Shown one piece after another: positions 35,569 through 49,795 of a stretch of 64,000 bases of DNA. Source of the stretch: Spirochaetia bacterium (lineage in GTDB: Bacteria; Spirochaetota; Spirochaetia; DSM-2461); contig CAXXIA010000001.1 of assembly GCA_963666985.2 (NCBI GenBank), positions 256,001-320,000 of the forward strand, in the 5' to 3' direction. The position numbers and the translations under genes are program-made. The notes beneath the pieces are model-generated. The model had not been told where the DNA came from, did no database searches, and worked only from the letters and a program-made list of their open reading frames with translations. Position 1 is the stretch's first letter. Every line of letters begins with the position of its first letter.

Positions 35569-35801
35569 GGCGCTAATCTCGTTCACTCTCCACGCTTAAG
35601 AGATTCGTTTCCTCCGGACGAACAAAAACGTTCGGAGGGTATGACGGAACGGTTCGAAAGCATCGAATCAGGAGTCATAATTCGGATCGTTCCTATCGAT
35701 CCGTATACCCGAATTGCGTCTCGGATCACGCGGTATTTCTCATGTTTCTGCGTCCATTACAAAGATCCGCCCCAAAAGAGGCGTTCGGCTAATTATTAGT
35801 A

Positions 35802-35855
35802 GTAAATATATATTTACATACATATTAAATAAAAAATAATTTTATTATTTAATAT
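35802..35855. promoter_or_regulatory. AT-rich palindromic operator candidates upstream of the sulfur-relay operon
   Basis: Perfect 16-bp palindrome GTAAATATATATTTAC (35802-35817) and ATATTAAATAA-N12-TTATTTAATAT (35822-35855). Confidence 0.45.
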
Positions 35856-35934
35856 CGATAAAATATGATATATATCTAATAATATAAGAAAACGATCAAA
35901 GATCGTGGGAGATTACAGAAAGAGGAGGTGGCGA

Positions 35935-36642
35935 ATGGGAGATCAATCTCAGATGGCGGCCGAAGGCGGTATCCGGCGCAGTACCCGAACTCGGGAGAGG
36001 AAGAAAAAGAAGAATCAGATTCCCTTTGGGATCTTGGCGGTTCTGGTTGTCGTCGCCATCGGTATCATTCTTACGCATACATCCGGAACACGTGTTGCGT
36101 TCTTCTGGATGCTGGGCAATATTTTCGGTTTCGTGCTCCAGCGTTCCCGTTTTTGCTTTACGGCTTCGATGCGCGATCCCTACCTCACGGGAAGCACGAG
36201 TCTGACGAAAGCCGTTTTAACCGCGTTCGCCGTTACCACCATCGGTTTTGCCGCGATTAAGTACGGAGCTTTCGTTAAGGGTTTACCCATTCCCGGACAA
36301 TCCTATGTGGTGCCTTTCGGCGTTCATACAATGGTCGGTGCTTTCATGTTCGGCATCGGCATGGTTATCGCCGGCGGATGCGCGTCGGGAACTCTGATGC
36401 GTGTGGGAGAGGGCTTCGGCATGCAGATTCTCTCGCTGTTTTTCTTCATCGTCGGTTCGCTGCTTGGCGCAGCGACATTCGGCTGGTGGAAGCTGACGTT
36501 CATCGTCAGGAGTCCGAAGGTGTTTCTGCCCGATGTTTTCGGATGGATCGGTGCCGTAGTGATTCAGCTGCTGATTATCGCCTTGCTCTGGATAGCGGCG
36601 GATAAATGGGCAAAACATAAAAATGCTTCGGGTGCGCATTAA
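35935..36642 (+). CDS. YeeE/YedE sulfur-compound transporter, first half
   Basis: GFVLQRSRFCF and FGIGMVIAGGCASG. AGGAGG SD supports ATG 35935. Confidence 0.9.
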   Translation: MGDQSQMAAEGGIRRSTRTRERKKKKNQIPFGILAVLVVVAIGIILTHTSGTRVAFFWMLGNIFGFVLQRSRFCFTASMRDPYLTGSTSLTKAVLTAFAVTTIGFAAIKYGAFVKGLPIPGQSYVVPFGVHTMVGAFMFGIGMVIAGGCASGTLMRVGEGFGMQILSLFFFIVGSLLGAATFGWWKLTFIVRSPKVFLPDVFGWIGAVVIQLLIIALLWIAADKWAKHKNASGAH

Positions 36643-36673
36643 CTGAATAAGTTATTTATATAAGGAGATTTAT

Positions 36674-36904
36674 ATGAGTAAAGAAGTTGAATTGGACTGC
36701 ATGGGCGAAGCCTGTCCCGTTCCTCTGATTAAAGCCGAGAAGGCTCTGGCCGACTTGGATGTCGGAGATATTCTCATCGTTCTGATCGATCACAGCTGTG
36801 CGATGAAGAATGTTCCCGAGTGGGCTCGTGAGCAGGGACACAATGTGGAACTTGAGGAAGTCGACGACGGCGAATGGGAAGTCGTCATTGAAAAGGTGAA
36901 ATAG
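36674..36904 (+). CDS. TusA/YeeD-family sulfur carrier
   Basis: LDCMGEACPVPL (CPxP) and DHSCAMKNVPEW. SD AAGGAG. Confidence 0.92.
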   Translation: MSKEVELDCMGEACPVPLIKAEKALADLDVGDILIVLIDHSCAMKNVPEWAREQGHNVELEEVDDGEWEVVIEKVK

Positions 36905-36923
36905 GTTTCCCCTCAAGTCATCG

Positions 36924-36955
36924 GATGCCGGGGGCGTCTCGGCGGTCCCGGCATC
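36924..36955 (+). other. Intercistronic GC-rich hairpin
   Basis: GATGCCGGG...CCCGGCATC between the tusA-like gene and the second YeeE half. Confidence 0.55.
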
Positions 36956-36989
36956 TCGAAGAATTTCCAACGCGTTCATTGAGGATATT

Positions 36990-37538
36990 ATGAAGAGATT
37001 TTTCGAAAATATAAAAACCAACGATTACTACAAGGCTTGGCTGAAGGACGCTTGGCCTTATTTAACCGGAGCGGTCCTTCTTTCGATTTTCCAGATTGTT
37101 TCATTGGCGGGAACGGGATCTCCTTGGGGGGTATCCGGAACATTGGCCGATTGGGGCGCTTGGCTTTATCAGCTTGTCGGCGGCTCCGTGGAAAAGTGGT
37201 ACTATTTTTCTTCGGAAGCCGTTCAGGCGAAATTGGCGGCCGGTCCCTTATCCGATCCGGGGACTCTGCGCAATCTCGGCATCATAACAGGAGCCTTATC
37301 CGCGACTCTTATCGCCAGCGGCTTTAAATTCAAAAAGATCAAATCCTGGAAACAAGTTGCGGCGGCTGTGCTCGGCGGTCTTCTCATGGGATACGGAGCC
37401 CGTATCGCCTTCGGATGCAACATCGGAGCATTGTTCAGCGGGATTTCTTCCATGTCCGTATCCGGTTGGGTTTACGCGCTTTTTATGTTCCCCGGAGCCG
37501 TCGTAGGCAGCAAATTGCTGGTTAAGTATTTCATGTAA
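36990..37538 (+). CDS. YeeE/YedE sulfur-compound transporter, second half
   Basis: PWGVSG and GGLLMGYGARIAFGCNIGA. Confidence 0.9.
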   Translation: MKRFFENIKTNDYYKAWLKDAWPYLTGAVLLSIFQIVSLAGTGSPWGVSGTLADWGAWLYQLVGGSVEKWYYFSSEAVQAKLAAGPLSDPGTLRNLGIITGALSATLIASGFKFKKIKSWKQVAAAVLGGLLMGYGARIAFGCNIGALFSGISSMSVSGWVYALFMFPGAVVGSKLLVKYFM

Positions 37539-37551
37539 CGGGGAATAGAAT

Positions 37552-38796
37552 ATGAGAGAGAAAACAAGAGAACGATACGACGTTGTTATTATCGGTGGCG
37601 GCGCGGCCGGTCTTACCGCCGGAATTTACTGCGGCAGGGCCCGCCTTAATACTTTGCTTATTGAAAAAGCCCTTATCGGCGGTTTGGCTACGTATACCAG
37701 CGAAATTGAAAATTATTCCGGATTTCCTGGTGGGGCTTCCGGTCTCGATTTGATGAATCTTTTCAAAGATCAAGCTAAGAAATTCAATGTCCGTATTAAA
37801 GGAACGGATGTGAAAGAAGTGAATTTCGAGAGTGAATGGAAAGAAGTTCATACCTTCCGAAACATATTCGAAGCGAGAACAGTCATTATTGCATCCGGTG
37901 GCAGACCTCGGGTGACCGGCGGCATTGATGAAGAAAAATACCTTTTCGATAAAGGCATCAGTTTCTGCGCAACCTGCGACGCCGCAGCCAATGAAGGCAA
38001 GACGGTCATGATTATCGGTTCCGGGGATGCGGCTATAGAAGAGGGAATCTTCTTAACGAAATTTGCCAAGGAAGTGATTGTCAGCGTTATTCACGACGAG
38101 GGCAAGATGGATTGTAACGAGATTGCCCGTGAGCAGGCGCTGAATAATCCGAAAATGAGTTTCGCCTGGAACACCATGGTTCATTCCTTTAAAGGGGATG
38201 GCCATCTGAATACGGTCGTACTGAAAAACTTGAAGACAGGCGAGCTTCAGGATTATCCGGTCGATACATGTTTTGAATTCATCGGCTATATCCCCAATAC
38301 GGAAATCTTTAAAGATATTCTGGATCTTTCAAAGCAGGGCTACATCATCACGAATGAATTGATGGAAACCAAAATCCCCGGAGTATTCGCCGCCGGAGAT
38401 GTCCGGGAAAAATGGCTTAAACAGGTTGCGACCGCCGTGGGCGATGGAGCCATCGCCGGAGTGGGCGCCGAGAAATATATCGCCGATTCCGAAATTTTCG
38501 AGAACCAGATCATGCAGGCCGAAAAGCCCGGATTCATCTACGTTTATTCCGCCATCGACGATCCCAGCCGCGAACTGCTTCCCATGATGACGGAGATTGA
38601 ACAGTCTTACGGAGGCAAAGTGAAGCTCAGCGTTATTGATCTTTATAAGGGCAAGAAACTCTGCGACAGACTGGCCTGCGACGCGGAACCCATGACGATG
38701 TTTTACACGCTGAATGGTGAACTTGCGGCCACTGAGACCGAATGTGACAGACCGCATATTGAGGCCAGGCTCAATAAGCTTTTGGAAGAAGCCTAG
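37552..38796 (+). CDS. trxB: Thioredoxin reductase-like flavoprotein with a C-terminal extension
   Basis: IIGGGAAG, IENYSG, CATCD, GSGDAAIEEG, FAAGD, TAVGDGA, plus ~100 extra C-terminal residues. Confidence 0.88.
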   Translation: MREKTRERYDVVIIGGGAAGLTAGIYCGRARLNTLLIEKALIGGLATYTSEIENYSGFPGGASGLDLMNLFKDQAKKFNVRIKGTDVKEVNFESEWKEVHTFRNIFEARTVIIASGGRPRVTGGIDEEKYLFDKGISFCATCDAAANEGKTVMIIGSGDAAIEEGIFLTKFAKEVIVSVIHDEGKMDCNEIAREQALNNPKMSFAWNTMVHSFKGDGHLNTVVLKNLKTGELQDYPVDTCFEFIGYIPNTEIFKDILDLSKQGYIITNELMETKIPGVFAAGDVREKWLKQVATAVGDGAIAGVGAEKYIADSEIFENQIMQAEKPGFIYVYSAIDDPSRELLPMMTEIEQSYGGKVKLSVIDLYKGKKLCDRLACDAEPMTMFYTLNGELAATETECDRPHIEARLNKLLEEA

Positions 38797-38806
38797 GAGG
38801 TTGGAT

Positions 38807-39709
38807 ATGAAAAAAGCGATCTTTATACTCTCCGCCGCCGCCGTTCTTCTGTTAATGAGCTGCGCTCCCCCTCCCGGGGGCGGGAAAGGGACTGAAATCA
38901 TAAGCGCGCAGCAGGCTCTGACGCTTTTAAAGAGCGGTAATGTCGTTCTTGTAGATGCGGATACGGGAGTGAATTATAAGAAGCGTCACGTGGAGGGTGC
39001 CGTTAATATTCCAAGGCCCGCCATCGTCGTCAATAATCCCGTACCGAATATGCTGGCTCCCGCCGATCAAATTGAGCGTGTTCTGAGTGCCGCGGGAATA
39101 GGCAATGATACGTTGATTCTCGCCTACGACGATAACAAAAATATGGATTCGGCTCGATTATGGTTTACCGTGAAAGTTTACGGACATGACAAGGTTAAGG
39201 TTGTTTCAGGAGGTTTTACAGCGTTAACCGAAGCCGGCGCGGCGGTTACTTCCGCGATTCCGGAAGTCGCTCCCGCGTCTTTTTCAGCCGGCCCTCTTCG
39301 TGAAGATATGCTGATCAGCGGAAAAGAAATTCGGAAGCGAGTGGAAAATCCCCCCGGGAAATATGTCTTAATTGATACACGCAGCCTTCAGGAATACAAC
39401 GAGGGCACCATTCCCGGTGCGCTGCAGCTGGATTTCAGCGGGAATAATTTTTCGGACGGTACTTACAAGCCGGTTAATCAAATTCGAATACGCTATCTCG
39501 AAGAAAAAATCGATTACGACGATGAAATAGACATGTTCTGCAAAACTTCGATTCGCGGAGCCCAGACCTATCTTGCATTGTATAACGCCGGTTATCGAAA
39601 CTTAAAATTGTATGACGGGGCATGGGTTGAATGGGTCTCCAATCCCATGAATCCGGTTTTTATTCCCGAAGGAGCGGCATTGAAATTGGATGCCTCCGAT
39701 CAATCATAG
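38807..39709 (+). CDS. Tandem-domain rhodanese (sulfurtransferase) lipoprotein
   Basis: Lipobox LMSC, ARLWF, GTIPGA, active loop CKTSIRG, LYDGAWVEW. AGGAGG SD. Confidence 0.9.
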   Translation: MKKAIFILSAAAVLLLMSCAPPPGGGKGTEIISAQQALTLLKSGNVVLVDADTGVNYKKRHVEGAVNIPRPAIVVNNPVPNMLAPADQIERVLSAAGIGNDTLILAYDDNKNMDSARLWFTVKVYGHDKVKVVSGGFTALTEAGAAVTSAIPEVAPASFSAGPLREDMLISGKEIRKRVENPPGKYVLIDTRSLQEYNEGTIPGALQLDFSGNNFSDGTYKPVNQIRIRYLEEKIDYDDEIDMFCKTSIRGAQTYLALYNAGYRNLKLYDGAWVEWVSNPMNPVFIPEGAALKLDASDQS

Positions 39710-39729
39710 GAAATTAAAGGAGATTTATC

Positions 39730-40656
39730 ATGAAGAGATTTCTGTTTCTTATCCCGGCACTTGTTGCCATCGCTTCGGTATCATTCGTGTCCTGCTCCAA
39801 AGAACAGCCGGCGGCAGAAGCTCCCAAAGCGGAAGCGGCGCCGTCCGCTCCCTCCGTTGATCCGGTTGAAGACGCCGCAAATGCTTATTTCGCGGATTTC
39901 CCGGGCGCCCGGATTATCAAAGAAGATGCTTTCCTTGAAAAAGTGAAGGCCGGGGAATCTATGACCATTCTGGATATCAGGAGCGCCAAGGATTACGAGA
40001 CATCTCATGTCCGAGGAGCCGTGAATCTTCCCTGGGGGCCGGCCATCGCCGACAAACTTTCCTCGATTCCTCGGAGCGGACAAGTTTATGTCTATTGTTA
40101 TACGGGGCAAACGGCCGGTCAGGCGGTTGCCGTTTTGAATGTCGCCGGAATCCCGGCTCAAAGCGTTCGTTACGGCTTTGTGCGCGGAATCGGCAAGGTC
40201 GAAGGCTATGAAGATGCCCTCACAAGCGATCCCGCCGAACTGACCGGATCATTTTCTGTTGATCCCGCCGTTCAAGCGGCTGTCGATGCCTATTTTGCCG
40301 ATCTCGGAGAACCGCCGTTTAAAAACAACATCATCAGTGCATCCGATGCGGCCGCCGTTCTGGAAGCCGGTGAAGATGTGCAGTTCGTGGATGTTCGCAG
40401 CGCTGAAGATTATGCCGCCGGTCACATCGAAGGAGCCATGAACATTCCCTTTGGGAAAGGAATGCAGGAGTCGTTTGCAAATCTTCCGTCTGATAAGAAA
40501 TTGATTGTTAACTGCTATAGCGGACAGACAGCCGGGCAGACCGTCGCGATTCTTAATCTTCTCGGTTACGATGCGGCCAGCATCAACAGCGGAATGGATA
40601 CCCCCTTAACCGGTGATAAAGGCTGGGCTAATGAGGGATTTCCGCTCGTTAAGTAA
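39730..40656 (+). CDS. Double rhodanese-domain lipoprotein
   Basis: Lipobox FVSC and two internal repeats, each with a catalytic Cys loop (YCYTGQTAGQ, NCYSGQTAGQ). Confidence 0.9.
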   Translation: MKRFLFLIPALVAIASVSFVSCSKEQPAAEAPKAEAAPSAPSVDPVEDAANAYFADFPGARIIKEDAFLEKVKAGESMTILDIRSAKDYETSHVRGAVNLPWGPAIADKLSSIPRSGQVYVYCYTGQTAGQAVAVLNVAGIPAQSVRYGFVRGIGKVEGYEDALTSDPAELTGSFSVDPAVQAAVDAYFADLGEPPFKNNIISASDAAAVLEAGEDVQFVDVRSAEDYAAGHIEGAMNIPFGKGMQESFANLPSDKKLIVNCYSGQTAGQTVAILNLLGYDAASINSGMDTPLTGDKGWANEGFPLVK

Positions 40657-40685: not shown

Positions 40686-42408
40686 GGGGCTGTCTCATAA
40701 GAGGCGGCCCTTTTTCATGTCTGGAAGAATTCCCTTCTGAATTCAAGGGTGGTAGAATTCTTCATGGACACTAAAAAGAAGGCTACATTCAAAGATTACG
40801 AAATCAGCCAACAGATGCTCCTGCCTCCAAGTCTCGATGAACTGCTTCCCGCAAACCATATATCCCGCACAATCAACAACTTCATCGACACGATGGATAC
40901 CAGTGAGCTCTTCAACGCCTATCCGGGAGGCGGTGCCAGCAGCTACCACCCGGTGATGATGCTGAAGGTTCTGGTGTTGGCCTACTCGAAACAGCTGTAT
41001 TCCTGTCGTCAAATCGCAGACGCTCTTCGTGAGCAGATATGCTTCATGTGGATCAGTGGTAATAACCGTCCTGATTTCCACACGATAAACAGATTTCGTA
41101 ACGGTCCATTGAAGAAGAGCATCGAGAAAATCTTTGCCTCAATGGCCAACAGCCTCATCGAGAGCGGACATGTCCAGATGGAGAACTACTTTCTCGACGG
41201 CACAAAAATCGAATCAGCAGCTAACAAATACACATGGGTATGGGGCCGGGCGACAGACAAGTTCCAGAAGCGCCTGGCCGGCAATATGGATGAGCTTTTC
41301 GAATACATCGACCGCATCAATGAAGAAGAGGATGAGAAGTACGGCGACCATGACCTTCCCCATGTGGATCCTCAAGGCAGGCCGATGTCGGAGATTCTCG
41401 AAGATGCGGTATCCAAGCTCAATGAAGAGCTGCGCAAGGATCGGGAGGAGCGAGAAAAGAAGGAGATTCAACGGAGATTGAATACCGCTAGCAAGGACTA
41501 TCTCCCTCGTGCCAAAAAGTATGAGCAGCAGAAGAGAATCCTCGGCGACCGAAATAGTTACTCGAAAACAGACTATGATGCGACTTTCATGCGGATGAAA
41601 GAAGACTATATGAAAAATGGTCAGCTCAAGCCCGGGTACAACATCCAAATGGGTACTGAGAACCAGTTCATCCTCGGATATAGCATCCACCAGAGTCCCG
41701 GTGACTCCCTGACATTGCCGCTACATATGGAGAAACTGAAAAAGAATCTGAAACGCTATCCGAAAAGAATCATTGCTGATTCAGGATATGGTAGTGAAGA
41801 GAACTACCAGTGGTGTGAGGATCATGGTGTCGAGAAGTACATCAAGTTCAGCTACTTCCACAGGGAGCGGAAACGGAAGTTCAAGAAGCAGATTCATATG
41901 AAAGAGAACTGGGACTATCGTGCCTCTGATGATACATACCGGTGCCCCAAGGGTCGCCGATTCAAACACGAGGAGACCAGAATCTCGAAAACAGGTTCAG
42001 GATTTCCGACCACTGAAAAAAGGTATACAGGCCCTGGATGCCAAAGGTGTTCTCTCCGAATCCGGTGCTGCAAATACGGAGGCAAAGAGCGCATCCTGAC
42101 GGTTCGTCCAAACCTGGAACGGCATAAGTCTGAAGTGCGCAAGTTGCTGACTTCAGAGGAAGGACTGAGAATGCGCTCTCTCAGGCCGATTGAAGTCGAA
42201 TCTGTATTCGGAGATATCAAGACGAATATGGGATTTCGGAGATTCCGAACCAGGGGATTGAAGATGGTCAGTACTGAATGGGGACTGTTGAGTATGGCTC
42301 ATAACATGAGGAAGCTACAGAAACGATAAGGGGATGGGAGGGAACCTCCCGTCTTCGGAGGTCAACCAAATTTTAAAAGGGGCTGTCTCAAACTAATGAG
42401 ACAGCCCC
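40686..42408. mobile_element. IS1182-family insertion sequence
   Basis: Transposase bounded by the 13-bp inverted repeats GGGGCTGTCTCAT (40686) and ATGAGACAGCCCC (to 42408), flanked by TTTT on both sides. Each end also forms its own hairpin, so the exact boundaries are ambiguous. Confidence 0.85.
40764..42329 (+). CDS. IS1182-family DDE transposase
   Basis: YHPVMMLKV, PDFHTINRFR, DGTKIE, SYSKTDYDATFMRMKED, KPGYN, ADSGYGSE, VESVFG, HNMRK. The frame is intact. Confidence 0.93.
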   Translation: MDTKKKATFKDYEISQQMLLPPSLDELLPANHISRTINNFIDTMDTSELFNAYPGGGASSYHPVMMLKVLVLAYSKQLYSCRQIADALREQICFMWISGNNRPDFHTINRFRNGPLKKSIEKIFASMANSLIESGHVQMENYFLDGTKIESAANKYTWVWGRATDKFQKRLAGNMDELFEYIDRINEEEDEKYGDHDLPHVDPQGRPMSEILEDAVSKLNEELRKDREEREKKEIQRRLNTASKDYLPRAKKYEQQKRILGDRNSYSKTDYDATFMRMKEDYMKNGQLKPGYNIQMGTENQFILGYSIHQSPGDSLTLPLHMEKLKKNLKRYPKRIIADSGYGSEENYQWCEDHGVEKYIKFSYFHRERKRKFKKQIHMKENWDYRASDDTYRCPKGRRFKHEETRISKTGSGFPTTEKRYTGPGCQRCSLRIRCCKYGGKERILTVRPNLERHKSEVRKLLTSEEGLRMRSLRPIEVESVFGDIKTNMGFRRFRTRGLKMVSTEWGLLSMAHNMRKLQKR

Positions 42409-42790
42409 TTTTTTGTTCGGTTTTGTGAAACGGATAGGGGCATCCCAACACTTTCCAAAGCCATGGCAATCCCTATTTTTATCTCTTCCCATGAAATGTC
42501 GAATGCCTTATCCGTATCGACCCGATGGACAATTACAAGATTTTTCTCGGGAAAAATGATGAGGGCGTGGACGCCGAGTCCGGTATGATAATAACCGGGA
42601 CCAATGGGATTATCTGCCGGAATGATTCTCCAGAGATAACCGTAAGGATCTCCGTGCTGATCCGGGAGCGGTGTAACCGAGATGCTTTCCTGAATCCATT
42701 GAGCGGGAACAATGCGATTCCCATCCCATGTTCCTTTGTTCAGATAAAGCTGTCCGAATCGAGCCGGATCCAGGGTCGACATCCGAAAGG
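42393..42790 (-). pseudogene. C-terminal fragment of a beta-lactamase-family serine hydrolase
   Basis: MSTLDPARFGQLYLNKGTWDGNRIVPAQWI, YGYLW, HTGLG. The N-terminal SxxK part is absent, and the stop codon lies inside the IS right-end hairpin. Confidence 0.7.
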
Positions 42791-42944
42791 AATACGTTGG
42801 ATGCCGCGTTTTTTTCGGACTTTCTGATCTAAAACAGGCGGGAATTAAGAACACGATGGATGGAAGAAGAACAAAGAGGAGTGCGGTTGAAATTCTTTTT
42901 TCGATTTTTTCCCTTCTTCATATGATTAACACCAGCGATATTCG

Positions 42945-44645
42945 ATGAAAGCTTCCCGTCCGTATATTATGGAATCGACGATGAAAGATGTCATTGGTAA
43001 AACGCCGTATCGGACCATACTCGCCGCAATCATAATTTTCTTCTATGTGTTTTTACATCTGCTCACTCTTTCCCGCCATCCTTTCGTTCATTCCGACGAG
43101 GCATGGCTGGCCGTGTTGACCAGAGCGATGATTGCGGAACGTTCTCCGGCCGCGACCGAGGAGGTTTTTCGTCTGACACCGCGTTATCCGCATGCTCTGA
43201 AGACACTCTATCATGTCTTGCAGATGCCTTTCTTGGCCGTTTCCTGGTCCGCTTTCGCCGCACGGCTGCCGTCTCTGACGGCCGGAATCGCCGCTTTGTT
43301 TTTTTTATCAAGAATTGCTCAAGAGTGTGGTCTGAGGGGGTGGAGGCGCTTCGTGCCGTCGGCTCTTATGTCCGTCGATCCGCAATTTTGGTACTCGGCG
43401 CATTTCGGCCGGCAGGAAATGATCCTTGTCGCCTTGTTTCTATGGGCATGGAGCCTGAAGGCCCGCAATAAATCGGCGGCACTTACAGCCCTGCCTCCGG
43501 CGGCCGGGATTTTCATTCATCCGAATATTTTTATTATCGCTCTGGCAATCGGGGCGCTGTACGCGGCGGATCTCCTAGGCTGTATCGGAAAGAAAAACGC
43601 TTGGAAGCGGCCGCTTACGAATCTCGCTGTTTTTTCCGGTATTCTTGCCGCCTCGGCCGCAGCCGCCCTCGGGGCGAGTGTTCTCATGGATTCCGGCTTT
43701 TTGAACCATTATACGGACTTCGGAGATCGTGTCGGAGCAGGCGATTCCATAGCAATGAAGATCTTGGGTTTGCCCAGGTTTCTCGGCAAAATGTGGAACC
43801 GCCGCGCGGGCACCTACTACCTGGCGGATGTACGTCCCATGTTTGTTCTCGGTTCGCTGGGATACTTAATAACCGCCGTTCGGGCGATTTTTCAGAAAAA
43901 AGGCCGCGGAAGACTTCTTCTCATTCCGTCTCTTCTTGTCGGAATTATTATTGTGGGAAAATATGCTCCGCCGACGGTCGTTTTCCTTATGCCGTCGCTC
44001 TATCTCGCACTCGGCGAGGCCTTTTTTGGTGAATGGAATGCGAAGGGACTTTATCGCCGCTATGGGAAAAGAATCACTCTCGCCGCGGCGGCTGTATCAT
44101 GGATCCTTCCGGCCGTGATTTCCTTCTCTGAAGTCCGAGAATCGCTGATGAAGCCGAGTTACACCGAATATGTCCGATTTCTTCAGGAATCCGTAGGTCC
44201 TCTGAACGGGGATGAGCGGATTCTTGTTAATTTGAATGCCGCCTTCGCTTTCGGGTACGACACGCTGGTAATTTGGAGGGATTTGACGCCTTTGAGCGGG
44301 AATCATGCCAATGAAGGCCGTGATGGAGAAACAAAGGCCGCTTGGATTGGGAACAATACCGCAGAAAGCCTTACCACCGGCATGTATGGGGATTTGGAAA
44401 CTTTTTTGGATAACCAATGCGTCTCTTGGATTGTTCTCCCGGACGAATTGAACTACATCTACGAACGGCGTCCCGTATGGAACGCTCTTTACGGAACTCC
44501 CGGATGGTATCCTCCGCTGATGGAAATACTGGAACGGCGGGGCGAGGAGATTTCACGGGGGTTTTTCCCGAATTATGCGATGAGGATTGTGCCTCTTATG
44601 AAATCAAATAATTGGAGTGTCGGTGTCTATCGGCTAAAGCAGTAG
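42945..44645 (+). CDS. GT-C superfamily (ArnT/PMT-like) membrane glycosyltransferase
   Basis: TM followed by acidic HSDE motif, ARLPSL, HFGRQE, HPN; many TM segments and a C-terminal soluble domain. Start uncertain (42945-42981). Confidence 0.72.
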   Translation: MKASRPYIMESTMKDVIGKTPYRTILAAIIIFFYVFLHLLTLSRHPFVHSDEAWLAVLTRAMIAERSPAATEEVFRLTPRYPHALKTLYHVLQMPFLAVSWSAFAARLPSLTAGIAALFFLSRIAQECGLRGWRRFVPSALMSVDPQFWYSAHFGRQEMILVALFLWAWSLKARNKSAALTALPPAAGIFIHPNIFIIALAIGALYAADLLGCIGKKNAWKRPLTNLAVFSGILAASAAAALGASVLMDSGFLNHYTDFGDRVGAGDSIAMKILGLPRFLGKMWNRRAGTYYLADVRPMFVLGSLGYLITAVRAIFQKKGRGRLLLIPSLLVGIIIVGKYAPPTVVFLMPSLYLALGEAFFGEWNAKGLYRRYGKRITLAAAAVSWILPAVISFSEVRESLMKPSYTEYVRFLQESVGPLNGDERILVNLNAAFAFGYDTLVIWRDLTPLSGNHANEGRDGETKAAWIGNNTAESLTTGMYGDLETFLDNQCVSWIVLPDELNYIYERRPVWNALYGTPGWYPPLMEILERRGEEISRGFFPNYAMRIVPLMKSNNWSVGVYRLKQ

Positions 44646-45359
44646 TTCATAACGCCGCCGCATACGGATCATTTCCCGGAAGAAATCCGGACTTTCGGAA
44701 TCCCTTTCCGGGCCCAGCGGATTTTTCTCGGGAGGACTCAGCTCTCCTTTTGCGTTCATGTAGACGATACGGTCGGCCAGCACCAGCGCTTCGCCGACAT
44801 CATGAGTCACTAATAATATGGTAAGATCCCTGCCGCTTCGTATTTCCGCGAGAACCCGGTGGAGTCTGCTCCTAATCTCGGCATCCAGAGCGGCGAAAGG
44901 CTCGTCCAGTAGAAGATATCGCGGATTCGCCGCCAGAGCCCGGGCCAGTACGGCCCTTTGGCGCATTCCCCCGGAAAGCTGGACGGGATATAAAGAACCC
45001 GCGTTCGGAAGTCCTACAAGCGACAACAGAAAATCTGCGTCGGCTCCCTCCGATCCGGCCGCGCCCATACGGCGGGGAAAGTCGATGTTGTCCGCAACGT
45101 TGAGCCAGGGAAGAAGCTGATTATCATCCTGCAGAATAAGCTGTCTGTCGGCGGAAGGAGAATAAACCTCGGCTCCGTCGATGAGAATCCGTCCCTGTTC
45201 CGGCGTATCGAGTGAGGCCGCGCATCGAAGAAGGGTGGATTTTCCGCAGCCCGAAGGGCCGAGCAGGCAAGTCAGCGAGCCCGGCTCCACCGTCAAGTTG
45301 AGGCCGGAGAATACGGGCGGTTTCTCCGGCCAGCATCGGGTAAGACCTTCTAATATCAT
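44634..45359 (-). CDS. ABC transporter ATP-binding protein (NitT/TauB/SsuB type)
   Basis: GPSGCGKST, LLPWLNV, LSGGMRQR, LLDEPF, VTHD. Start MILEG overlaps the permease stop. Confidence 0.92.
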   Translation of the reverse strand: MILEGLTRCWPEKPPVFSGLNLTVEPGSLTCLLGPSGCGKSTLLRCAASLDTPEQGRILIDGAEVYSPSADRQLILQDDNQLLPWLNVADNIDFPRRMGAAGSEGADADFLLSLVGLPNAGSLYPVQLSGGMRQRAVLARALAANPRYLLLDEPFAALDAEIRSRLHRVLAEIRSGRDLTILLVTHDVGEALVLADRIVYMNAKGELSPPEKNPLGPERDSESPDFFREMIRMRRRYELLL

Positions 45360-46180
45360 GGAACGATTTCTCCCCATTTTTTTCGTACGCGGGTTTCCCA
45401 TCGTCCCAGTAGAAAATCTTCCATGGCCATGCCCGTGAGCATCACCGTGATTAATGCGGCATAGAGGGCGGGACTGTCCATCATGACGCGGCTTTCGAAA
45501 AGCTGCCATCCGAGGCCTCCCATGGTTCCCACCGCGCCGAAAACCATCTCCGCGGCGATAAAGGCCCTCCAGGCGCGGGCCCAGCCGATGCGTATGCCGG
45601 AAATCAGATGCGGGAAAGCTCCCGGCAGGGAAATATGAACGAACGTCTTCCACCGGCCGAGGGAGAGATTCCGTGCGTAAAGCGTCCATGCGGGAACCAA
45701 GGACCTCATCCCGGATTCCAGATTCACGAAGATGGGCCAAAGAACGGCATGAACAATAATAAAAAGAACCGCGTTGGTGCCGGTACCGAACCAGAGAATT
45801 ACCAGCGGCATAAGCGCCAGTCCGGGCAGGGGATGCATCAGGGAAGAGAACACCGAAAGGATGGACGCGGCCGTTTTGTTGGAACGGGAAAGAAGAACAA
45901 GAGCTAAAGCGCCTGCTAATCCGAAGAGAAGACCGGCCGATACGACGGCCAGTGATAAGAGCCAGCGAATCGGCAGTTCTCCGGAAACCGTATCGTTCCG
46001 GAAGGCCAGGAAAATATCCGATGAGGACGGCATGAGCAGGGGATTCGGCTTTATGATGAACCGGATTATTTCCCACAGAACGGGCAGGGCGAGAAGCCAG
46101 AGCCATCGGCGAGAGGCTGAAAATCGGGAACGGAAAACCGTGTGACGGGGCTTGCAGAGATTTTTTTCCGATTGCTCCAT
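45356..46180 (-). CDS. ABC transporter permease (NitT/TauC/SsuC type)
   Basis: PLPGLALMPLVILWFG, SGIRIGWARAWRAFIAAEM, GGLG. Confidence 0.92.
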   Translation of the reverse strand: MEQSEKNLCKPRHTVFRSRFSASRRWLWLLALPVLWEIIRFIIKPNPLLMPSSSDIFLAFRNDTVSGELPIRWLLSLAVVSAGLLFGLAGALALVLLSRSNKTAASILSVFSSLMHPLPGLALMPLVILWFGTGTNAVLFIIVHAVLWPIFVNLESGMRSLVPAWTLYARNLSLGRWKTFVHISLPGAFPHLISGIRIGWARAWRAFIAAEMVFGAVGTMGGLGWQLFESRVMMDSPALYAALITVMLTGMAMEDFLLGRWETRVRKKWGEIVP

Positions 46181-46204: not shown

Positions 46205-47320
46205 CTATGGCGTTACGAGAACACTGTCGTCCAAATGGGTTTTGAGATATCCCTCGGCATACATGAAGTCTCGAAACCTCTCCATACCGTATATCTGTTC
46301 TCCGTATTTCAAAATACCGGAGTGAAAAATATCGGAGAGTTCGCCGGGTTCCATTGCGTATTGCTCGGCCAGGAACTCCGCCGCTTTTTCCGGATTCTCT
46401 CCAATCCATTCGGAGGCACGGGCCAGTGCGCGGCGAATCCCTTTCACCGTTTCCGGATAATCCCGAATCAATTCATCCGTGAGGACGGCGATGATAAAAG
46501 TGAATTCTCCGCCGAAGGCTTCTTCTCCGTCCAGAATGAGATGGGCTTTCCCCGAATCCAATTCTTTACGGAGGTAAGGCGGCGATGTGAAATGAGCTTC
46601 CACTTCAGTTCCCGATAGGAGAGCACTCATACCATCCGGATGCTTAAGGGTAATAAGCTGATTATCGAAACGTCCGGCGTCGCCGAAATTCCTTTCGGCC
46701 GCCATCGCCAAGAGAATGTGCTGAATACTGCCGGGCTGCGGCAATGCGATCCTCATATCCGGAGGAATATCCTCCAGGGTAAGGATGCCGGGACGTACGG
46801 CGGCTAGGCCGAGCTCGGCTTCGGCCACGGCCGAAATCGCCGTCCAATTCATTCCTTTGTCTTTACCGATGAGATACGGAGGGATTCCCATGAATCCGCC
46901 GTCCATTCTTCCCGCCAGGATCGCTTCCCTGACGGTTGCCGCATTTCCCGCCTTTTCCCATTCGATTCGGATTCCGGGAAGTTCTTCTTCGAACCAGCCC
47001 ATCCGCCGAGCGACATTCACGGGTGCGTATGCCAGACCGTATTGTTCGGCCAGAATGAGTTTTTCAGGGACGGTGCTGCCGGTCTCATGATTCTTGGGCT
47101 CGCGAGGAGAACAGGAGAGGAACAGAAAAGAGGCAAAAACGCCGAAAACAATGACTGTGAATGGAAGGGAAAAACGTTTGAAGTTATGGGCACATTCGTC
47201 GTTTTTTCTCCATATGGATTTTTCAGCCGATGTTTTTAACGTCGTCTTACGGCGGTCGGCCGTGTGTGTTTTTAAATGATCGCATCGTTCATTCGGCGCG
47301 CACGGAAGTTGAGCTTTCAC
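46205..47320 (-). CDS. ABC transporter substrate-binding lipoprotein (NitT/SsuA type)
   Basis: Hydrophobic stretch + FLSC, QYGLAYAP, IALPQPGSIQH, AHFTSPPY. Start position uncertain. Confidence 0.85.
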   Translation of the reverse strand: MKAQLPCAPNERCDHLKTHTADRRKTTLKTSAEKSIWRKNDECAHNFKRFSLPFTVIVFGVFASFLFLSCSPREPKNHETGSTVPEKLILAEQYGLAYAPVNVARRMGWFEEELPGIRIEWEKAGNAATVREAILAGRMDGGFMGIPPYLIGKDKGMNWTAISAVAEAELGLAAVRPGILTLEDIPPDMRIALPQPGSIQHILLAMAAERNFGDAGRFDNQLITLKHPDGMSALLSGTEVEAHFTSPPYLRKELDSGKAHLILDGEEAFGGEFTFIIAVLTDELIRDYPETVKGIRRALARASEWIGENPEKAAEFLAEQYAMEPGELSDIFHSGILKYGEQIYGMERFRDFMYAEGYLKTHLDDSVLVTP

Positions 47321-47361: not shown

Positions 47362-48621
47362 TTATTTGGGGTTCAGAGTATAGCTAAGCGTGTTTCTTAG
47401 CAAGTTTTCACCATTCGGATTCAAAACCTTCATGCGCCGTATCGCTTTTTTTAAGGTACGGTTCACGGCCGCCGTGTTTGGGCCGTGTACAACCATGTAT
47501 GCGGCCCTCTGCACGGAATTCTTAACGGTGCCGACAACCGATCCTATCGGCAGGAGATAATCGAAAGCGCTGACTCCGGGGAGTCCTCGGACGGTATGTT
47601 TCGAACCGAGAGAGGCAATGGCTCCCGTTCCGCAGAACATCAGCGGAACGGCAAAGGCAAAGGAGTTGACGGGAACGGCGAAAGCGGGATTATCGGGATC
47701 GGCGGAACCGTTCGCCGCTCCGTCGATAAGAATATCGAGAAGATCGACTCCGCAGATCGGCGGCAGCGATTCATCTTCGAATGCCCCGCCCAAACGAGCC
47801 GCCGTCTCGTTGACGAGAATCCCCTCGTTTGTTACTAAAAATTGATAATAAATCGGTCCTTCTTCTACACCCAGGGCCGCGGTGCACGATTCAACGAGAT
47901 GTTTTGTTTCTTCCCTCCGGCCGGATGCATAAGCGGAAGGGTAGCGATGCGCCATGCAGATTCCTATATGCGCATGGAAGTCTTTCGTAACTCTGTCCGT
48001 TACCGACCAAATCCGCACACTGCCGCGGTGAACCCAGCCGGAGACGGTTATTTCTCGATTCGAATGATATTCTTCCACAATAATTCTTTTCCGCAGCGAC
48101 CATTCCAGAGCTTCATCCCGCGCGGCCGTAAAGCATTCGGCCGAATCAACGCGGAGAACACCGCGCTGTCCCTGACTGTCTACCGGTTTAACCACGTAAG
48201 GCGGCTTTAATCCTCGGAGAATTTCGATTCCGTCGTTCGAAGAGGCGAACCGAAAGCGAGGAACCGGCAAGCCGGCTGAAGCCAGCGCCGTTTTCATAAC
48301 CTCTTTGTCGGTGACCGTCCGGGCGGTTGTTTCGGAAAGGAAAAACGGACATCCCCGAGCCGATGCCGCCTTGGCCGCGGTCAGTACGGGCTGATCCGTT
48401 CCTGCCGTAAGAACAGTATCTACCCGATATCGTACGGCGGCATCGGCCGCCGCCGATGCATTTCGGGTATCGGCGGCGATGAACTCATCGGCATAAGGCG
48501 CGGCCGCGCAGAGAGGATTTCTATCCTGCAGAACGACTTTAATGCCCCGCTCCTTCATGCGCCGGATTAATCGAAGCTGTCCGCGGCCTCCTCCGATGAC
48601 CAAGTAAACGGAATTTTTCAT
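47362..48621 (-). CDS. ATP-grasp domain protein
   Basis: IGGGRGQ, GTDQP, TDKEVMK, VVKPVDSQGQRGV, VEEY, VNETAARLGG. Confidence 0.88.
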   Translation of the reverse strand: MKNSVYLVIGGGRGQLRLIRRMKERGIKVVLQDRNPLCAAAPYADEFIAADTRNASAAADAAVRYRVDTVLTAGTDQPVLTAAKAASARGCPFFLSETTARTVTDKEVMKTALASAGLPVPRFRFASSNDGIEILRGLKPPYVVKPVDSQGQRGVLRVDSAECFTAARDEALEWSLRKRIIVEEYHSNREITVSGWVHRGSVRIWSVTDRVTKDFHAHIGICMAHRYPSAYASGRREETKHLVESCTAALGVEEGPIYYQFLVTNEGILVNETAARLGGAFEDESLPPICGVDLLDILIDGAANGSADPDNPAFAVPVNSFAFAVPLMFCGTGAIASLGSKHTVRGLPGVSAFDYLLPIGSVVGTVKNSVQRAAYMVVHGPNTAAVNRTLKKAIRRMKVLNPNGENLLRNTLSYTLNPK

Positions 48622-49442
48622 GGCGTTTCCTCGGCAATCAGATCGGCGGCGATGTCGCCGGCCGTCCTTTGATGCTTCAAAAAGCGGCGGATCATTCTGG
48701 GAATCGGACCGTAATACCACGCAAGAGAAAGTTCCAGACCCATGAGAACGCCGAGATTGAATCGTCCTTTATCACCGTATTCCCAAGCGGGTGTCGGCAT
48801 CATTTCCACCTTGGGAGCGGGCCTTAAAGAGAGGATTTGAGCCGAGAGGTAAGGAAAGGGCATTGGAGCATCAAGCAAACGATTCACCAGTTCTCCGGAG
48901 ATGGCGCGATAACTTCCCACTCGGATCGATTTCGGCGAACCGGTCAGCAAAGACATATGGAGTTGATGAAGAGCCGAGGCCGCCCTCCGAATCCCTCGTC
49001 CGGGTCTTTTCGAAGGAAGCGCATAGACCGCGCCGCAGCCGCCGTCCAATGCCTTCAGCAAATCCGGAACGGCCTTAGGCGGATGCGATAAATCGTCGTC
49101 CATGGTGATCACGGAGCGGTTCCCGCAGCGCGTCAGACCGGCAATGAGCGCCGTTTGCTGCCCCCCTCCGCGATGAAGTTTTATCCCTCGGACCGGTATC
49201 GCGTTCCTTCTTTCTTCACGGCTCATTTGAAGAATCGTTTCCCAGGTTTTATCCGTGCTTCCATCGTCGACAAAAAGCAATTCTCCCCGGCCGAATCTCT
49301 CGGTAATATCGAAAAAAACCTCGTTCAGCCGGTTCCGAAGCATATGAAGTCCGTCATTGCCGTTCCTGACCGGCACCAAAACGACATACCCCTTATTGAA
49401 ATCGCTCTTTCGGAGAGCGGGATTTTCCTTTGTGCCGTTCAT
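48618..49442 (-). CDS. Family 2 glycosyltransferase (GtrB/ArnC/DPM-like polyprenyl-phosphate GT)
   Basis: VLVPVRN, FVDDGSTDKT, GQQTALIAGL, ITMDDDLSHPP. Start overlaps the upstream TGA. Confidence 0.85.
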   Translation of the reverse strand: MNGTKENPALRKSDFNKGYVVLVPVRNGNDGLHMLRNRLNEVFFDITERFGRGELLFVDDGSTDKTWETILQMSREERRNAIPVRGIKLHRGGGQQTALIAGLTRCGNRSVITMDDDLSHPPKAVPDLLKALDGGCGAVYALPSKRPGRGIRRAASALHQLHMSLLTGSPKSIRVGSYRAISGELVNRLLDAPMPFPYLSAQILSLRPAPKVEMMPTPAWEYGDKGRFNLGVLMGLELSLAWYYGPIPRMIRRFLKHQRTAGDIAADLIAEETP

Positions 49443-49795
49443 CAGAAGCCCCAGACCGCGATTCCCGCGCAGCATAGAAGAGCCCCCAGCAGTATTCGTC
49501 CGCCGGGACGTTCCCCGAGAAACAGACGTCCTCCGATTTGTACGAAAACACCGGTGAGGGCCGTTACCGCATAAGCCCGCGAAAGCGGGACCGTCTTGAG
49601 TACGTGCCAGTAAATAAACGGTACGCCGAGAACCAGCAGGAGTGCCCAGGGAGCCGGTCCTTTGAAAAAACTCTTGAGAAAGCGGACGAATCCGGCATCC
49701 GTAATCCAAACCGCCGCGCCCTTGCGAAGGAGAATCTGCCCCGCCGCACTGGCAATCACCACAATCAGCAGGAGAAAGAACTCTCCGGTATTCAC
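49442..49795 (-). CDS. SMR/EamA-like small membrane protein (ArnE/ArnF flippase-like)
   Basis: AGQILLRKGA, VPLSRAY, FLGE; 4 TM segments; GTGA-coupled start. Confidence 0.75.
   Translation of the reverse strand: MNTGEFFLLLIVVIASAAGQILLRKGAAVWITDAGFVRFLKSFFKGPAPWALLLVLGVPFIYWHVLKTVPLSRAYAVTALTGVFVQIGGRLFLGERPGGRILLGALLCCAGIAVWGF

Follow-up and report, generated by a model that had tools for sequence, protein, structure and literature searches.

A split YeeE-type channel, a TusA-type carrier, an atypical TrxB and exported rhodaneses belong to a larger locus that may form an inward sulfur relay with a thiol-bearing sugar as its outer arm

The window analyzed here is a 64,000-nucleotide (nt) stretch of DNA from a Spirochaetia bacterium (contig CAXXIA010000001.1, positions 256,001 to 320,000), whose genome assembly is 4.86 Mb in size and 93% complete. 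Six genes at positions 35935-40656 of the window code for the two halves of a YeeE/YedE-type channel, a TusA-type sulfur carrier, an atypical TrxB-type flavoprotein, and two exported rhodaneses that we call RhodA and RhodB. We found that these six genes are part of a larger conserved system that extends past position 40656 up to approximately 49800. The original prediction, a six-gene sulfur-relay operon, was right about the six genes but missed a module of GT-C and GT2 glycosyltransferase, flippase, ATP-grasp and ABC transporter genes, as well as the C-terminal tail of RhodA. We propose that the locus is an inward sulfane-sulfur relay in which sulfur is reduced to sulfide, and in which the terminal serine of RhodA bears a thiol sugar as the outer arm; we regard this scheme as an even bet. 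The broader claim, that a glycan-borne thiol arm on the C-terminal serine of an exported sulfurtransferase is a new protein prosthetic group, repeatedly swapped for cysteine or a terminal selenocysteine (Sec) and feeding a YeeE channel and a TusA-specific flavin reductase, is put forward tentatively, at somewhat less than an even chance. The six genes and the tail are as follows (aa, amino acids):

35935..36642, + strand: YeeE/YedE half A, 235 aa, with Cys74 and Cys149 (PF04143, profile positions 1-157; aligns to the N-terminal half of 6LEO)
36674..36904, + strand: TusA/YeeD-like carrier, 76 aa, with Cys9, Cys14 (CPVP) and Cys42 (DHSC) (PF01206)
36990..37538, + strand: YeeE/YedE half B, 182 aa, with Cys143 (PF04143, profile positions 168-309; aligns to the C-terminal half of 6LEO)
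37552..38796, + strand: atypical TrxB-type flavoprotein, 414 aa (Pyr_redox_2 and a weak Thioredoxin match in Pfam; fold model)
38807..39709, + strand: RhodA, tandem-rhodanese lipoprotein, 300 aa, with active-site Cys245 and a flexible tail (PF00581 twice; tandem sulfurtransferases in PDB)
39698..39706, + strand: C-terminal D-Q-S of RhodA, proposed modification site (tail comparison with relatives)
39730..40656, + strand: RhodB, exported double rhodanese, with active sites Cys123 and Cys262 (Pfam Rhodanese, two stretches)

All six open reading frames are real and lie on the + strand, separated by gaps of 31, 85, 13, 10 and 20 nt and each preceded by a purine-rich element resembling a Shine-Dalgarno (SD) sequence, so the predicted one-strand layout, tight spacing and SD-like elements are borne out. 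Every motif that had been named is also present: RFCF (C74) and GGCASG (C149) in half A, CPVP (C14) in TusA, GCNIG (C143) in half B, and CATC (C139/C142) in TrxB. The lipobox cysteines of the two rhodanese lipoproteins are C19 and C22. By scanning species genomes we found at least 557 relatives of half A, and kept the best 80 loci for locus counts, although many of these are cut by contig ends. The order half A, tusA, half B, trxB is kept in 72 of the 73 loci that have at least 1.5 kb of room, with L067 being the one locus without a trxB match. The complete six-gene order is present in 24 of 60 loci with room; in Bacillota loci, the rhodanese pair is mostly found about 9 kb upstream on the opposite strand, past a LysR gene. 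In an even sample of 201 genomes from the host's class, 39 have an orthologue of half A (E < 1e-110), and one half-A homologue is named from Sediminispirochaeta bajacaliforniensis. The distribution is patchy, because only 4 of 13 genomes from the same genus have a TrxB orthologue. On the evidence of these homologues, the system is conserved across many anaerobic bacteria. We found no description of the core in the literature searched, subscription papers being outside the search.

The channel is split around TusA, as originally described. Half A and half B align to the N-terminal and C-terminal halves of Spirochaeta thermophila YeeE (6LEO) and jointly hold its three cysteines: Cys74 and Cys149 are both present in 81 of 81 half-A homologues, and Cys143 in 76 of 76 half-B homologues. 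We rejected a frameshift or pseudogene as the origin of the split, because TusA intervenes and the best 120 half-A homologues listed are stand-alone proteins of 205-252 aa. The two parts also occur in other combinations–among 120 longer half-B homologues listed, 92 are A-B fusions and 28 are B-A fusions, and other loci have tusA, B, A and trxB as separate genes, or with B and A fused. A quick tree of YeeE proteins, in which the E. coli proteins sit on long branches, has 7 changes among four arrangements, including one A-B fusion nested within the split group. The fused relatives and the tree support a predicted heterodimer of A and B. As judged from sequence comparison, the family is an example of circular permutation by fission and fusion, split or fused and in both orders, in a membrane channel. 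At loci L158-L164, which have tusA, B, A (split or fused) and trxB but no rhodaneses, the pairing of TusA with TrxB survives the permutation. A perfect 9-bp inverted repeat (36924..36955, + strand) lies in the 85-nt gap between tusA and half B, where it might stabilize the upstream message or tune an excess of TusA.

Assignment of the channel to a named family gave mixed results. It has the three conserved cysteines of TsuA/YeeE, but it is split instead of being a single chain of 330-350 aa, and the halves score only 70.8 and 29.8 bits against a cut-off of 645 (NF041049 or NF052577). The best NCBIfam family for both halves, ahead of TsuA, is YedE/FdhT (NF033796), which is defined as a single B-A chain and for which the halves score 103.9 and 96.9 bits against a cut-off of 350. 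Proteins of the PmpA/PmpB type are about 130 aa long with one cysteine each, and differ from the halves of 235 aa with two cysteines and 182 aa with one.

TusA belongs to its family by both score (PF01206, 91.2 bits against a cut-off of 28.6) and CPxP motif, and lies below the cut-off for TsuB/YeeD (NF041048, 55.7 against 147.5). Compared with E. coli TsuB, the second Cys sits two residues away. The three cysteines of TusA, Cys9, Cys14 and Cys42, are present in 88, 90 and 90 of 90 homologues, respectively. There is more than one copy of tusA in 9 of the 80 loci; for example, L054 (10654-11486) has three copies in tandem whose proteins are identical.

The prediction that TrxB is atypical proved correct. 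It keeps CATC and GSGDAA (GxGxxA), and its predicted model has the TrxB fold, but HRRxxxR is lost, with the acidic stretch VIHDEGKMDC in its place. HRRxxxR is described as the NAD(P)H motif of TrxB in passages of PMC10880999, so its loss suggests that the electron donor of this predicted reductase is NADH or another donor. By the motifs in those passages, the protein has the fold, CxxC and GxGxxA of NTR proteins but not HRRxxxR, and it falls below the TIGR01292 cut-off (307.8 against 343.45). It is not NTRC-like either, since its fused C-terminal thioredoxin-like domain has no CxxC, and residues 313-414 contain no conserved cysteine among 72 homologues. There are two extra cysteines in the nucleotide-binding domain, Cys188 (conserved in 71 of 72 homologues) and Cys240 (72 of 72). 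Elsewhere in the genome there are a separate canonical TrxB, which keeps HRRxxxR, and two thioredoxins; we recognized no thioredoxin cluster among the recurring genes of the loci.

A model of a TrxB dimer in complex with TusA supports direct binding between the two proteins. It scored 0.63, compared to 0.00 for the best of three controls; the mark applied to such models is reached by 116 of 157 solved complexes and by 2 of 215 mismatched pairs, counts that are only roughly transferable to this case. At least 95% of the contacts agree between runs, and the partners have a predicted local distance difference test score (pLDDT) of at least 86. The contacts join residues 82-86 and 101-103 of TrxB to residues 48, 57-62, 71 and 73 of TusA, which are invariant or nearly so in the two families, and the TrxB contact residues K83, T85, T101, F102 and R103 are invariant in 55 rows. 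Passages of PMC11073785 state that the electron route of YeeD is unknown, and that YeeDs with two cysteines might resolve the adduct internally. With the modeled contact, TrxB becomes a specific candidate for the enzyme that supplies electrons to YeeE/YeeD systems. Loci L113, L115 and L116 contain rhodanese fusions resembling CoA-disulfide reductase, one of which adds a TusA domain, and these are candidate cytoplasmic persulfide reductases.

Both of the predicted rhodanese lipoproteins are present, with two amendments: the first, RhodA, is also a tandem two-domain protein, with a single active cysteine (C245), and the lipobox cysteine of RhodB is kept in only 18 of 37 homologues. Each has the two domains and active-site cysteine loop of the tandem-domain sulfurtransferases. 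The RhodA lipobox cysteine is present in 45 of 45 homologues and Cys245 in 44 of 45, while Cys123 and Cys262 of RhodB are present in 37 of 37. None of the 120 rhodanese matches listed was named RdlA, the name used for a Halanaerobium congolense protein. More distant exported rhodaneses, located beside a fused YeeE and TusA, have neither the tail described below nor a GT-C gene.

RhodA ends in a variable linker followed by D/E-x-Ser in 103 of 110 rows, and in 114 of 120 proteins of a second set. The alternatives are GGCG(G) tails (L027, L033, L064, L170, P0256, and five proteins of the 120-protein set), tails in which GG is followed by UGA (L055, L217, L218, L220, L225 and L238), and NNS, which occurs once. 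The serine of D-x-S occupies the position of the cysteine or Sec in the alternative tails. The arm motif of SoxY is GGCGG; a SoxY-type arm, with a C-terminal GGC(G) on a flexible tail, is absent from RhodA of the window and is found only in L027, L033, L064, L170 and P0256. In L064 the catalytic cysteine has been lost and the GGCG tail has been kept, which fits a carrier role for the tail. In genes ending in GG, UGA is the first stop and a hairpin follows 11-14 nt downstream in 5 of 5 distinct sequences, compared to 10 of 130 D-x-S genes by the same rule, and there is a paired double change between two hairpin variants. The tail of L225 reads UGA, Ala, stop, and selA is present in the GG-UGA genome G229. 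From the alignment, the hairpin resembling a selenocysteine insertion sequence (SECIS) element, and selA, we infer that the GG-UGA tails end in a terminal or penultimate Sec. Passages of a published table of rhodanese selenoproteins give five forms, and a GGU motif is in none of them. We rejected Sec recoding in the six genes of the window, as none has a TGA stop and no in-frame TGA aligns to a query cysteine in the fetched loci.

The tail type is related to the presence of genes that could attach a sugar. Neither a GT-C orthologue nor an ATP-grasp gene was found in the 4 of 4 GGCG or GG-UGA genomes searched, and because Cys- or Sec-tailed relatives are without the sugar-attaching genes, the serine of RhodA likely carries a thiol sugar. 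Put differently, the serine is swappable with cysteine or Sec, and glycosylation is needed only with serine, so a site for a thiol-bearing sugar is the simplest explanation. The GG tail types require 5 changes on a quick rhodanese tree built without the tails, and a single clade is rejected (P = 0.0139 by the approximately unbiased test).

The genes that follow rhodB are:

40686..42412, + strand: IS1182-family insertion sequence (IS) element, with its transposase at 40749-42329 (NF033551, above cut-off; 14 genome copies, 99.9-100%)
42945..44645, + strand: GT-C-fold membrane glycosyltransferase, start uncertain, no clear SD (orthologue in L085 matches PMT_2/PMT and ArnT; fold model)
44634..45359, - strand: ABC ATPase (PF00005)
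45356..46180, - strand: ABC permease (PF00528)
46205..47320, - strand: SsuA/TauA/NitT-type binding lipoprotein of a sulfonate-type ABC importer (profile matches)
47362..48621, - strand: ATP-grasp ligase of the L-amino-acid-ligase / GAR-synthetase type (profile matches; fused to GT2 in L277 and L279)
48618..49478, - strand: ArnC/GtrB-like GT2 glycosyltransferase, start uncertain (PF00535; best NCBIfam matches PgfS and ArnC, below cut-off)
49442..49795, - strand: small EamA/ArnE-like membrane protein, candidate flippase (PF00892, weak, E 2e-5, below cut-off)

The flippase-like, GT2, ATP-grasp and ABC genes converge on the GT-C gene. GT2, flippase and GT-C are together the components of a three-component transmembrane glycosylation system, although the flippase match is weak. 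The GT-C model has a pLDDT of 89, and its Foldseek matches are ALG12, OST, ArnT and PglB. Among the 80 loci, GT-C is present in 53, the ATP-grasp gene in 52, the binding protein in 40, GT2 in 36, and a WecE aminotransferase in 29; Bacillota loci add dTDP amino-sugar genes. GT-C is found in 41 of the 42 RhodA carriers among the 201 genomes of the class, and in 48 of 49 among 251 genomes of a Bacillota order, where the sole RhodA carrier without it is G229, whose tail is GG-UGA. GAR synthetase couples an amino acid to an amino sugar, and mycothiol and bacillithiol are cysteinyl-aminosugar thiols. The ATP-grasp protein resembles L-amino-acid ligases and GAR synthetase, from which we infer that it joins an amino acid to an amino sugar. 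In the literature searched, no three-component glycosylation system is known to install a catalytic thiol on a protein.

The GT-C gene starts 3 nt past rhodB in the three closest relatives (L018, L216 and L245), and the IS element is therefore a recent interruption. A hairpin at 40686-40711 was considered as a native terminator and rejected, because it is the left end of this element. At each end of the element a GC-rich hairpin precedes a run of T; the two hairpins are related, and they could terminate transcription. Between the element and the GT-C gene there is a fragment (42393-42854, - strand) with a weak match to the beta-lactamase family (E 0.004, below cut-off), which is absent from the rhodB-GT-C junction in the three closest relatives. 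A second architecture is seen at L145-L149, where RhodA, RhodB and the GT-C module are accompanied by a divergent fused YeeE, a 566-aa rhodanese-domain protein and a second ABC importer; there is neither a split core nor a TrxB match in the fetched stretch.

The relay that we propose would run from the outside to the cytoplasm. RhodB and RhodA would cleave thiosulfate or polysulfide outside the inner membrane, where any sulfite would stay, and the sulfur would be loaded onto the tail of RhodA. The thiol at this site would come from the module: the ATP-grasp ligase would couple a thiol acid (for example cysteine) to a nucleotide amino sugar, GT2 would transfer the product to a lipid carrier, the flippase would export it, and GT-C would attach the thiol sugar to the serine. 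From the arm, sulfur would pass to the A+B heterodimer and its three conserved cysteines. TusA would then take it over as a persulfide on Cys14, which Cys42 or Cys9 would resolve, and TrxB would re-reduce TusA, probably with NADH, releasing H2S. The main role would likely be fermentative reductant disposal, with the sulfide also usable by CysK/MetY. A trans-envelope chain from rhodanese to YeeE, TusA and flavin reductase had been suggested before, and is supported in part by synteny, invariant cysteines, fused halves and the TusA-TrxB model; the outer steps have been revised to include the glycosylation module and the RhodA tail. A sulfite/nitrite-reductase domain occurs in only 3 of the 39 half-A carriers (two of the matches being weak) and was not found in this genome, and its rarity in carriers fits extracytoplasmic cleavage or a polysulfide substrate. 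Upstream of half A, we found Rex-like boxes in 29 of 91 loci, compared to 2.9 expected from shuffles, and in 18 of 57 half-A genes; the corresponding figures are 11 of 179 for unrelated promoters and 7 of 81 when AT-rich promoters are taken. Crp/Fnr sites are similar in geometry, and related loci are not independent.

An alternative that we consider unlikely, though plausible, has the same import relay with a module that gives no thiol to the RhodA serine. The module might make a lipid-linked thiol bound by the tail, or a structural glycan, or the ATP-grasp enzyme might add a thiol amine to the C-terminus before export. GT-C folds act on lipids too, ArnT is among the fold matches of this one, and ATP-grasp enzymes that extend protein C-termini exist; genome G193, in which D-x-S is kept without the module, also counts in its favor. 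Three observations point instead to the thiol sugar: the serine stands where the alternative tails have cysteine or Sec, the GT2-ATP-grasp fusions in L277 and L279 tie the ligase to sugar loading, and GT-C tracks RhodA (41/42) more closely than it tracks the split YeeE (34/39). Alternatively, the relay could run outward, with TrxB and TusA reducing sulfur, polysulfide or oxidized envelope thiols outside the membrane through the YeeE pair and the RhodA arm, much as DsbD does. Neither the parts nor the TusA-TrxB contact would have to differ, most carriers are missing sulfite reductase, and Rex-like boxes suit an electron sink in either direction. We nevertheless think an outward relay quite unlikely, because characterized YeeE-family proteins import sulfur species and, according to passages of PMC11582611, the three YeeE cysteines lie about 7 A from one another, a distance that does not allow disulfide exchange.

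Homology to TsuA/TsuB raises the possibility that the locus is mainly a scavenging route that, like TsuAB in E. coli, provides sulfur for making cysteine and methionine when sulfur is limiting. A sulfonate-type ABC importer at the locus, cysK in 37 of 39 carriers, and a cysK-metY pair in this genome are all compatible with it, but cysK is also present in 121 of 162 non-carriers and is hence uninformative, and no cysteine synthase cluster was found among the genes recurring in at least 3 of the 80 loci. The enrichment of Rex-like boxes points to redox control and the amplification of tusA suggests high flux, so scavenging as the main function seems improbable to us. Selenium uptake or trafficking, which the original prediction had named as an outcome that would overturn it, is favored by the higher scores of both halves on the YedE/FdhT model (YedE/YedF being also known as FdhT/FdhU), by the LysR protein of Bacillota loci, whose best match is LysR_Sec_metab (below cut-off), and by the presence of selD in this genome. 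That alternative has been weakened: selD is present in 19 of the 39 half-A carriers and not found in the other 20, while 58 of 162 non-carriers have it, so there is no selenium linkage of the YedE/FdhT kind. The selD gene of this genome belongs to a separate selD-yedF-desulfurase locus, we found no selA match and no tRNA-Sec in the genome, and the tree places E. coli YedE, which has a long branch, apart from the group. The comparison makes selenium an unlikely cargo, and a selenium system is the reading to which we give very little credence. The genes selD, yedF and one of the cysteine-desulfurase family lie together at L112 (8013-11332), in a genome with neither a selA match nor a tRNA-Sec, so that selenium use there is of a non-Sec kind.

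Several results weigh against the inward relay with a thiol sugar. In this genome the IS element separates GT-C from rhodB, and the WecE-like aminotransferases are distant (223 and 188 bits, compared to 388-586 for the locus orthologues). Of the genomes with GT-C, 2 of 43 in one sample and 2 of 50 in the other gave no RhodA match. G193 (93% complete, 90 contigs) keeps D-x-S, lacks GT-C, and gives just a weak match for the ATP-grasp gene. The four GG-tail genomes searched are metagenome-assembled genomes of 1.7-2.8 Mb, and their assemblies are incomplete. In a contrast test with 84 rows scored, leaving out D-x-S rows whose short loci give no information on GT-C, strongly supported branches provide a single independent contrast and the best tree provides 4, which gives the comparison too little power, and the sign test is not significant. 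The hairpin rule was set after the hairpins had been seen, its five sequences stem from two lineages, and the L055 hairpin stretch taken by itself is no more stable than shuffled sequence (z = -0.26). In the TusA-TrxB model no catalytic cysteine takes part in a confident contact, the three CoA-disulfide-reductase/rhodanese fusions elsewhere in the genome could reduce persulfides too, the frequency of cysK in carriers leaves room for assimilation, and there is no Rex-like box at the promoter in the window, where the best candidate has 5 mismatches.

As far as sequence can tell, the system works like YeeE/YeeD and SoxT/SoxY, and lies outside TsuA, TsuB, YedE, PmpAB and canonical NTR. It shares with TsuA/TsuB (YeeE/YeeD of E. 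coli and S. thermophila; 6LEO, 8J4C; passages of PMC11073785) the three channel cysteines and a neighboring carrier of the TusA type with CPxP. Unlike that system, it has a two-gene channel with about 37% identity over part of its length, a TusA with three cysteines, scores far below the TsuA and TsuB cut-offs, a dedicated reductase, two exported rhodaneses and a glycosylation module. A split YeeE is itself already known, because PmpA/PmpB (PMC11582611, in part) are two half-proteins proposed to form a heterodimer, but those small proteins have one cysteine each whereas the halves here hold all three. YedE/YedF likewise has a TusA-type neighbor and is the best family match, but YedE is a single B-A chain, and the split locus has no dependence on selD. 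In SoxT1A/B with SoxYZ, DsbA/SoxS and TusA, passages of PMC11582611 and PMC11237559 propose that a swinging arm with a C-terminal cysteine feeds a YeeE-type channel and TusA. The GGCG tails of RhodA relatives resemble that arm of SoxY; in contrast to Sox, the arm here is on a rhodanese lipoprotein and mostly has serine instead of cysteine, and the hosts are fermenters with a reductase in place of an oxidation pathway. The module resembles ArnC/EF/T, GtrABC and PgfS/M in combining a GT2, a small flippase and a GT-C, and mycothiol and bacillithiol synthesis in its amino sugar and ligase chemistry.

In Halanaerobium and S. smaragdinae, rhodaneses have been tied to a thiosulfate-dependent production of sulfide that serves as a sink for reductant (passages of PMC5497025 and PMC3035371). 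RdlA and the other rhodaneses of thiosulfate-reducing fermenters are alike in this disposal of reductant; the published model uses the Asr sulfite reductase, and those passages name no transporter or thioredoxin. The locus would offer a fuller pathway of sulfide formation for fermenters that do not reduce sulfate, which bears on souring and corrosion of oil and shale wells and on sulfur cycling in sediments. If the proposed relay is true, fermentative anaerobes would form sulfide without molybdoenzymes or sulfite reductase, and if the tail has been read correctly, glycosylation would supply a catalytic thiol, which protein glycans are not known to do.

We also searched this genome for a PhsA/PsrA-type reductase, which was rejected: 4 of its 6 molybdopterin proteins were scanned (three distinct sequences), and all are below the PhsA cut-off. 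A cluster of flavoprotein, molybdopterin protein and ferredoxin genes occurs twice on contig C2 (L120 and L121), the two copies having identical scores and N-terminal sequences. In the Bacillota loci L032 (8638-9761) and L054 (8364-9482), the LysR gene is divergent from the core and convergent with a second, more distant three-cysteine TusA gene, and the two may be a sensor pair. Upstream of half A in the window there is one further feature:

35813..35840, + strand: sigma-70-like promoter candidate in an AT-rich leader (10/12 consensus match)

In the AT-rich leader (35797-35890), a possible operator, several inverted repeats overlap, one of them a 16-bp palindrome at 35802-35817.

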